From Comamonas sp. (GTDB taxonomy: Bacteria > Pseudomonadota > Gammaproteobacteria > Burkholderiales > Burkholderiaceae_C): a stretch of DNA of 64,000 nt. The position numbers were made by a program, and so were the translations under genes. The DNA lies in the NCBI RefSeq assembly GCF_036643215.1, contig NZ_JAVXSJ010000001.1, forward strand, positions 219,531 through 283,530, given 5' to 3'. The notes beneath the pieces are model-generated. The model was not told the origin of the DNA, made no database searches, and saw only the letters and a program-made list of their open reading frames with translations. This document shows, piece by piece, positions 52,925 to 54,372 of the stretch; position 1 is the stretch's first letter; every line of letters starts with the position of its first letter.

Positions 52925-52984
52925 TTTGAAGAAATCACCCGCTAGCCCTTTCGCATAAAGCGCATATAGCTATGGATTTTGATG
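52925..52984 (+). repeat. REP-like palindrome copy overlapping the tadA start
   Basis: gctagccctttcgcataaagcgcatatagctATGgattttga. Confidence 0.6.
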
Positions 52985-54372
52985 ATTCCGTGCACCCGCA
53001 CTTCATGCGCCAGGCGCTGGAGCAGGCCCGCGCGGCTGCAGCTTGTGGCGAGGTGCCGGTCGGCGCGGTGGTGGTCAGGAACGGCGAGGTCATTGGCCGT
53101 GGGCGCAATAGTCCGCTGTCTGCCCTCGACCCTACGGCCCACGCTGAAGTACTGGCGTTGCGCGAAGCGGCGCAGGCGCTGGGCAATTACCGGCTGGAAG
53201 GCTGCACCCTGTACGTGACGCTGGAGCCCTGCACCATGTGCAGCGGAGCCATGCTGCATGCGCGCGTGGATACGGTGGTCTATGGTGCGGCCGAGCCCAA
53301 GACTGGCGCGGCGGGCTCGGTGCTCAATGTGTTTGGCTACTCTGAAATCAACCACCAGACTCAGGTTCTGCGCGGCGTGCTGGCCGAGGAATGCGCTGCC
53401 TTGATGGCCGAGTTCTTTCAGCAGCGCCGCAAGGAAAAAAAGGTACTTGAGCCGCACCCGCTCAAAGACTGGGCGCTGCGCAACCCTGCAGAAGCCTTTG
53501 CTGATTTACCCCACTGGCCATGGCAGCCGCAGTGGCGCAGCGATCTGCCGGCACTCAACGGACTGCGTCTGGCCGTGCTGGATGAAGGCCCAGCCAGCGC
53601 ACCGCTGACCTGGCTGTGCCTGCATGGCAGCCCCGGCTGGGGCTATGAATTCAGGCATCTGCTGGCGGGACTGCTGGCGGCTGGGCACAGGGTGGTTGTG
53701 CCCGACCTGCCGGGCTTTGGCCGCAGCGACCAACCCAAGAAAGACAGGCAGCACACAGCGCAATGGCATCAGCAAATCATTGCAGAGCTGGTTCAGTCGC
53801 TGGATCTGCAGCAGGTGATTTTGCTGGGCCGTGGAGATGGTGGGCGGCTGGGGCTGGCGGCTGTACAAGCCATGCCTGAGCGTTTTGCAGGCGCATGGCT
53901 GATAGATGTCTGGCCGCTGACCGAGCAGCCCGAGCGCCGCCAGCAATGGATGGAGCAGGCGGCGCGCAAGCCCTCATGGGATGTGACCGAGGCGATGGCG
54001 CAGATTGAGGGCGGAGCAAAGAGAGATGAGGCCGAAAAGGCTGGAGAGGCCCGTGCATGGAGCGCCCCTTTTGCGCAAAGCGGTCACCGCGCTGCGCTCA
54101 AGGCCTGGCCGCGTGTGCAGGCTGAATTGCCCGCCGTGCCTGAGCCTCTTTTGCTGCAATGGGCGCAGGCCTGCAAGCTGTGGCTGCAGCCGTCAGCATC
54201 TGAGCAACTCGTATCGCTTGCGCAGTGGCAGGCCGCATGGCAGCAAGCTGCGCCGCAACTGTCGCAGATGCCGCAATTGTCTGAAGTCTGGCTGCAAACC
54301 CAGCATGGCTCTCCGGTTCCTGCGACAAAGCAGGGCAGCGCCGCAGCGGCTGTGGAATACTTTGCGCCGTAG
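52972..54372 (+). CDS. tadA: tRNA adenosine(34) deaminase fused to a haloalkane-dehalogenase-like alpha/beta-hydrolase domain
   Basis: N-terminal [22 protein letters not shown]; C-terminal [21 protein letters not shown]. Confidence 0.88.

Follow-up and report, generated by a model that had tools for sequence, protein, structure and literature searches.

How an essential tRNA-editing enzyme comes to be made in one piece with what looks like a dehalogenase, and what such a partner contributes once its catalytic residues have gone, are the questions raised by a gene at 52972..54372 (+) of the window, by which we mean the whole 64,000-nucleotide stretch of a Comamonas sp. genome that was analysed (positions 219,531 to 283,530 of contig NZ_JAVXSJ010000001.1). 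TadA, an essential enzyme from which the adenine base editors derive, is regarded as a small dimer on its own; characterised forms are about 150-170 aa long, stand alone, and act as homodimers. The gene studied here instead joins TadA, through a linker of about eight residues, to a full HLD-I (DhlA-type) domain which has become a pseudoenzyme. On balance we consider it somewhat probable that this pseudoenzyme module has been retained for a non-catalytic, fusion-specific structural role that it plays for TadA, and the evidence for and against this reading is set out below.

The gene is a single open reading frame of 466 aa plus stop, with no internal stop codon, and its two parts can be told apart clearly. 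The TadA deaminase domain (residues 8-159; 52993..53448, +) scores 202.6 bits against the TadA equivalog model NCBIfam NF008113, well over the cut-off of 150, and is also matched by Pfam MafB19-deam/dCMP_cyt_deam_1. The HAE motif (His57-Ala-Glu59; 53140..53148, +), which supplies a zinc ligand and the catalytic Glu, is invariant among 91 aligned homologues, as are Pro86, Cys87 and Cys90 of PCTMC (residues 86-90; 53227..53241, +), the motif with the two Cys zinc ligands. An AlphaFold2 model of the full protein, built from a 91-sequence alignment (mean pLDDT 90.8, pTM 0.79), has the TadA fold including its C-terminal helix: residues 2-157 superpose by VIA-align on 2b3j, 3ocq and 1z3a with Z 25 and an rmsd of 1.4-2.6 Å, the value for 2b3j and 3ocq being 1.4 Å. 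A search of the whole host genome (4.29 Mb, 99.99% complete, a draft assembly) found no second TadA-grade match, the remaining deaminase-domain matches being weak (at most 45% identity over some 85-110 residues, with E no better than 4e-14). The putative TadA substrate, tRNA-Arg(ACG), is present in two copies as identified by aragorn, which found no tRNA-Arg with G34 in the genome. The fused gene is predicted to be the cell's only TadA, the deaminase that converts A34 of tRNA-Arg(ACG) to I34. Extra A34 tRNAs were considered as added substrates and ruled against: aragorn found no A34 tRNA gene besides tRNA-Arg(ACG) in the whole draft genome, which is weak evidence in that the assembly misses some tRNAs.

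The remainder of the protein is related to the HLD-I enzymes. Its best phmmer matches among PDB sequences are all of this class (DpaA 7avr, 1.7e-37; DppA 2xt0; DhlA 1edb, 3e-33), and Foldseek with the model returns matches to both HLD-I and TadA structures. By VIA-align, residues 165-466 (53464..54369, +) superpose on DppA 2xt0 with Z 31.3 and an rmsd of 2.4 Å over 277 residues, spanning residues 1-297 of that chain, and on DhlA with Z 31.1; for DppA, DpaA and DhlA together the range is 2.4-2.5 Å over 277-278 residues. HLD-I structures, whose core and cap are both matched, rank above those of HLD-III (Z 25-26) and HLD-II (about Z 24). Because the superpositions cover the whole DppA, DpaA and DhlA chains, the hydrolase fold is predicted to be complete, including the C-terminal strands and the cap, a region of model helices at about residues 321-399 (53932..54168, +) that is deleted in truncated relatives; the domain as a whole is predicted to be catalytically inert. 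As to family membership, PRK00870 (a haloalkane dehalogenase subfamily) matches residues 168-391 with 143 bits, under its 265-bit cut-off, and covers only positions 3-221 of the 302 in the profile. The pLDDT falls below 50 at residues 111-113 and 445-453 only; the latter is the sole low-confidence stretch of the hydrolase domain, and this one poorly modelled loop is the expected site of the catalytic His.

The catalytic set itself has been replaced. The oxyanion-hole motif is degenerate, with HGSPGW at residues 218-223 (53623..53640, +) aligning on HGEP(T/S)W of the solved HLD-I enzymes (HGEPTW in DhlA, and HGNPAW in the live fused forms described below). The nucleophile elbow, LGRGDGGR at residues 285-292 (53824..53847, +), is degenerate as well: in HMMER alignments to 1edb, 2xt0 and 7avr its first seven residues (285-291) lie on (V/C)QDWGG of DhlA, DppA and DpaA, so that the nucleophile Asp (Asp124 of DhlA), found in these three enzymes and in the live fused forms, has become Gly288, and the halide-stabilising Trp (Trp125 of DhlA) has become Asp289. 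At the position of the catalytic acid after strand 7 (Asp260 of DhlA, DPVLG) no acidic residue is conserved, the clade having E, Q, N, G or A in a column where the alignment is unstable. The GHF motif of the catalytic His (His289 of DhlA) is absent, since QAGHFVQE of the live forms has turned into QTQHGSPVP (residues 442-450; 54295..54321, +), a degenerate remnant of the catalytic-His loop; its lone His445 stands in the expected loop but off register, is Tyr in a 95%-identical relative, and is Pro, Met, Ser or Gln elsewhere in the genus. An earlier note on this DNA, made from its letters, had described an intact TadA running without a stop into a DhlA-type domain of about 300 aa, with Asp changed to Gly and Trp to Asp at the elbow, HGEPTW changed to HGSPGW, and no GHF near the C-terminus, and each of these observations holds up. 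No stand-alone HLD that might compensate was found in the same genome, where other alpha/beta-hydrolase matches are 29-34% identical over about 85-100 residues. By the residues that it carries, the hydrolase half is a dead (pseudo-enzyme) HLD-I domain, that is, a clear homologue of active enzymes with the catalytic residues absent and, as described below, signs of purifying selection.

The fusion extends well outside the strain at hand. Whole-genome searches found the fused gene in 38 of 40 genomes of the genus, as full-length orthologues, and proteins under the name 'tRNA adenosine(34) deaminase TadA' that are orthologous over their full length come from Delftia, Acidovorax, Curvibacter and Comamonas (90% identity in C. 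suwonensis). A survey of the family, with matches in 147 genera, revealed about 80 TadA matches that reach well into the hydrolase domain, while in about 60 of the matching genera TadA is alone and about 180-210 aa long. The earlier note had taken it as background that TadA is normally stand-alone, which does not carry over to this family, where about half of the sampled genera are fused; the survey of TadA lengths and elbows that it had proposed places the fusion in close relatives as well. Because about 60 sampled genera of the family have a short TadA, the domain is not universally needed. The sequence searches show the fusion to be older than the genus and to be found across the family. 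One fused match (G101:C266:4279-5361) contains a single in-frame TAA, which may mark a domain on its way to being severed or may be a sequencing error. Neither full-text literature searches nor the deaminase-fold survey PMC3239186 turned up an account of TadA fused to a hydrolase in nature.

Live and dead forms of the fused domain exist side by side in the family. The motifs HGNPAWSY, VVQDWGG (QDWGG), DPVLG and AGHFVQE (GHF) are intact in fused proteins from 28 of the 29 other genera in which the domain is full-length (one of the 29, L019 of G145, comes from an unpublished genome, and no conclusion hangs on it), and the dehalogenase motifs are intact in 20 of 20 close stand-alone orthologues and in all three fused forms from one further family (f61). 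Within the genus of the window, the Asp-Trp elbow is retained at no locus sampled from 37 other genomes. Nearly all sampled proteins at least 55% identical to the window protein have an xGxGDGxR elbow, no acid and no conserved His, and in farther members of the genus degeneration is greater still. A sister group (L058-L060, Delftia-like, and of the same genus by the grouping used) retains Asp, Asp and His (VGHDDG, HD, CGHW), with the halide-binding Trp changed to Asp; in one of its members the elbow string, VGHDDGVH, is that of NCBI's Delftia protein P0071. These proteins may be hydrolases with an altered substrate, or an intermediate of decay. Elsewhere, an Acidovorax-like clade has the elbow VVQG(G/S)GG with acid and His retained, and one more genus has VTQGLNG. 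Given the great age of the fusion and the apparently intact catalytic set that it usually has in other genera, the state seen in the window is read as the lineage-specific death of a once-live fused enzyme.

Phylogenetic evidence bears on both the origin of the fusion and the order of the losses. Among 200 genomes of the order, searched with a live fused protein as query, fused forms are found only in the window's family and in f61, and eight families have stand-alone orthologues, about 300 aa long, that carry every catalytic motif and share 54-59% identity with the live fused domains. In maximum-likelihood, quick-search trees of the hydrolase domain (103-row and 35-row sets), a well-supported branch (SH-aLRT 100) parts the family's fused forms from the stand-alone clade, and in the 35-row tree the fused forms of the window's family make up one clade. 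The f61 fusions (L080, L081 and L082), with catalytic motifs intact, appear to represent a second, independent fusion, because they are nested among the stand-alone HLDs and their junction still carries the Met of the free gene. Constraining all fused forms to a single clade costs 32 log-likelihood units (p-AU 0.027, 35-row set), support that is only moderate because the test was picked after the tree had been seen. The 103-row tree implies three or more losses of the nucleophile among fused forms (in the Comamonas lineage, in the Acidovorax-like clade, and in one further genus), against none in the 20 close orthologues that stand alone, and it sets the Comamonas clade on a long branch of 0.82 changes per site; the Trp was lost on that branch, and Asp, acid and His later, inside the clade.

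The neighbourhood of the fused gene is conserved on one side. Directly downstream lies ldcA (54471..55598, +), encoding an S66 LD-carboxypeptidase (Pfam Peptidase_S66, S66C), and it adjoins fused tadA in 27 of the 29 other genera, at 28 of 29 loci of the genus, and at all 15 loci of a live genus. The LdcA of the window is extended at its N-terminus by some 60 residues rich in His, and an open reading frame of 156 aa at 55674-56144 (+) is made up of a unit of about 45 aa in three copies, each HTH-like (by weak, sub-threshold Pfam HTH matches only). Upstream are a U32 peptidase with DUF3656 (49270-51276, -) and a Leu/Ile/Val-type periplasmic binding protein (51675-52907, +), the adjacency of which to tadA is not conserved outside the genus. 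A promoter/terminator scan of the locus found only two chance-level minus-strand hairpins.

The death of the enzyme has not freed the domain from selection. By medians of pairwise Nei-Gojobori (NG86) estimates, which are rough in that pairs are non-independent and dS is high in some, dN/dS in the dead clade (149 pairs, dS 0.1-1.0) is 0.18 for TadA, 0.31 for the whole hydrolase domain, 0.25 for its N-terminal core, 0.36 for the cap and 0.51 for the C-terminal 66 residues, against 0.24, 0.20, 0.18, 0.15 and 0.31, respectively, in the live genus g147 (73 pairs). In chosen pairs the dead domain gives 0.14-0.36. The direction is clear: purifying selection acts on the dead domain, though about two-fold more loosely than on TadA, chiefly in the cap and the C-terminus, although a dN/dS below 1 could be obtained from selection against misfolding of an essential protein alone. 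The earlier note had proposed both that the domain is a pseudo-enzyme and that its dN/dS be determined; with values of about 0.2-0.3, not neutral, catalytic residues gone, and conservation in relatives, the core of the proposal is sustained. On the specificity module for A-to-I editing that the note also suggested, the search for further A34 tRNA genes bears, and it gave tRNA-Arg(ACG) alone.

A second line of evidence comes from residues that set fused domains, live or dead, apart from free ones. Seventeen positions have the same residue in at least 80% of the live and dead fused forms and a different one in stand-alone orthologues, among them P163, L164, W214, K256, K257, H261, G371, R373, A375, L376 and A378. 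The first two lie in the linker EPHPLKDW (residues 160-167; 53449..53472, +; pLDDT 83-87), and are kept by fused forms of either kind but not by HLD orthologues that stand alone; the linker follows the basic C-terminal helix of TadA, which in known structures is near the tRNA-binding surface. K256 and K257 close the best-conserved block of the domain (residues 244-257; 53701..53742, +), in which D245, G248, G250, S252, D253, P255 and K256 are invariant and which is retained in 35 truncated forms, even the shortest; stand-alone orthologues mostly have Asp at 257 and nothing conserved at 256. The motif GHRAAL (residues 371-376; 54082..54099, +), at the junction of cap and core, is likewise fusion-specific and is retained in several truncated forms. 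The end of the C-terminal helix, AVEYFAP (residues 460-466; 54349..54369, +), is conserved in live, dead and many truncated forms, with A460, Y463 and F464 nearly invariant in the alignment. The fusion-specific residues are the best computational hint that the domain may have a job tied to the fusion and not to dehalogenation.

Two further proposals concerning the fused domain were tried and rejected. An internal start that would yield a free hydrolase is rejected in that the junction (codons AAG GAA AAA AAG GTA CTT GAG CCG) offers no ATG, GTG or TTG. An adaptation to RNA binding by charge is unconvincing: group means of net charge are -4.3 for stand-alone, -1.4 for live fused and +0.2 for dead fused hydrolase domains, making the fused domains just slightly less acidic than the stand-alone ones, and the window domain is at -4. 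The domain is not notably basic, and this does not speak for a strong role in binding RNA.

On the reading that we favour, the job would be a structural one, possibly folding or stability, the holding of the dimer, or an extra docking surface for tRNA. Dehalogenase chemistry would be dispensable for such a job, which would account for its repeated loss alongside the persistence of the N-terminal half of the fold, of GHRAAL and, in most forms, of the last helix. In the window's lineage the nucleophile Asp, the Trp that binds halide, the acid and the His have all been replaced.

The truncated relatives bear on this structural role and on its foremost rival. Matches in 35 more genera (L095-L129) end near residue 300, in truncated TadA proteins of 333-433 aa that contain half to two-thirds of the hydrolase. 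Most of them have lost the majority of the cap together with the acid and His regions, and in none of the 35 do the Asp-Trp elbow and the His loop occur in one protein. They keep HGxxxW and PDLIGFGRSDKP, and many also keep GH(R/K)AA and the last helix (AVEYF); one cap-less protein of 348 aa (L113) models as a compact alpha/beta domain with a pLDDT of 90.8. At the far end, a 198-aa TadA (L130, from G047) has the tail ...AGIDVRHLDEP, which resembles the first HLD strand GLRLHYLDEGP; the tail may be a remnant, and some 'TadA-only' genera may have lost the domain. The series thus grades from live full-length through dead full-length and cap-less forms to TadA with short tails, as would befit an entrenched passenger in slow decay, an unrelated enzyme that was fused by chance and degenerates once unneeded, adding nothing positive. 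It would persist since clean in-frame loss is rare and since destabilising mutations would harm the essential TadA half. Such a passenger would also fit the relaxation of constraint, strongest in the cap and C-terminus, and the absence of the domain from many genera. The earlier note had raised a fusion partner in decay as an alternative, and this gains some weight because death and truncation have recurred across the family.

A passenger adding nothing leaves several features without a ready account: the conservation of fusion-specific residues in live and dead forms alike, the new clade-wide motifs at the former active site (GDG-x-R and W-x-x-A-W), and a dN/dS in the dead domain only about 1.5 times that of the live one. 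The second, apparently independent TadA-HLD fusion in another family is also hard to put down to chance alone. We regard the passenger as a serious but rather unlikely explanation, which differs from the structural role only in whether the domain contributes positively.

A neo-functionalised sensor, in which the old substrate pocket binds a small ligand or partner and thereby modulates A-to-I editing, seems improbable to us. The whole fold is kept in the genus, cap included, and the substituted elbow (Gly-Asp-Gly...Arg) is conserved across about 45% sequence divergence; but the cap and His loop that shape the pocket are its least constrained and least confidently modelled parts, many relatives have deleted the entire cap, and the genomic context suggests no ligand or partner. 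Still less credit can be given to the possibility that the domain is still a hydrolase, its active site rebuilt for a new substrate around Asp289, one residue past the usual nucleophile site, or around other residues. Asp289 is conserved in nearly all sampled clade members, and the sister group that keeps Asp, Asp and His with just the Trp replaced may contain active intermediates. The acid and His are, however, absent or unconserved in the window protein and most of its clade, His445 being Tyr in the nearest relative, and a nucleophile moved by one residue in an alpha/beta-hydrolase elbow is not expected to be catalytically competent. Finally, the merging of two genes by sequencing or assembly error, or by recent read-through, is refuted because the fusion is conserved across genomes, with an uninterrupted reading frame in those 38 genomes of the genus and some 80 genera, a conserved linker, and neither Met nor an alternative start at the junction.

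A wider proposition can be put beside the structural role, one that we rate as quite unlikely: in the cell, the HLD-I domain may serve tRNA A34 editing by means other than dehalogenation, through docking, by scaffolding the dimer or by controlling TadA allosterically, which would explain both the two or more fusions in Burkholderiales and a module that outlives its catalysis. This, if true, would be a clue to the purpose of many 'orphan' HLD-I enzymes in non-degrading bacteria; to our knowledge the natural substrates of HLD-I enzymes are largely unknown, and the live fused members offer a rare physiological handle on them. In a large and well-known family, TadA and a dehalogenase-type domain form one permanent unit, in which the domain is live, dead or cap-less by genus. 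Such a natural series lends itself to asking how a pseudoenzyme domain serves the protein that carries it, and it also bears on whether essential enzymes come to depend on fused passengers. For annotation, TadA is the right name for this gene, and the label haloalkane dehalogenase should be kept off its hydrolase half.

Known systems resemble the protein of the window in part only. It shares with bacterial TadA (E. coli 1z3a, S. aureus 2b3j) its first 160 residues, the equivalog model, the HAE/PCxxC site, the fold and the tRNA-Arg(ACG) substrate, and differs from characterised forms in the 300 residues that follow the C-terminal helix. With the HLD-I enzymes (DhlA of Xanthobacter autotrophicus, DppA 2xt0, DpaA 7avr, DpcA 6f9o, DccA 5esr and DmrA 4mj3) it has in common the alpha/beta core and cap (Z of about 31, 26-30% identity), the N-terminal motifs and the PDLxGFGxSDxP block, whereas it lacks their nucleophile Asp, adjacent Trp, acid and His, scores below the family cut-off, and is fused to TadA. 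The live TadA-HLD fusions of other Comamonadaceae-type genera, labelled TadA by NCBI, have the same architecture, linker, fusion-specific residues and downstream ldcA at 48-57% identity; with QDWGG, DPVLG and GHF in place they look competent for catalysis, whereas the window protein has none of these motifs. Eukaryotic ADAT3/ADAT2 is a likeness of a different kind, in which an inactive enzyme-derived module is permanently tied to an A34 deaminase, and the tRNA-binding role of ADAT3 is known. ADAT3 has no catalytic Glu (PMC3239186). It is, however, a dead deaminase paralogue on a separate chain, whereas the module of the window belongs to an unrelated hydrolase fold, stands on the same chain as the enzyme it would serve, and has a role that we infer.
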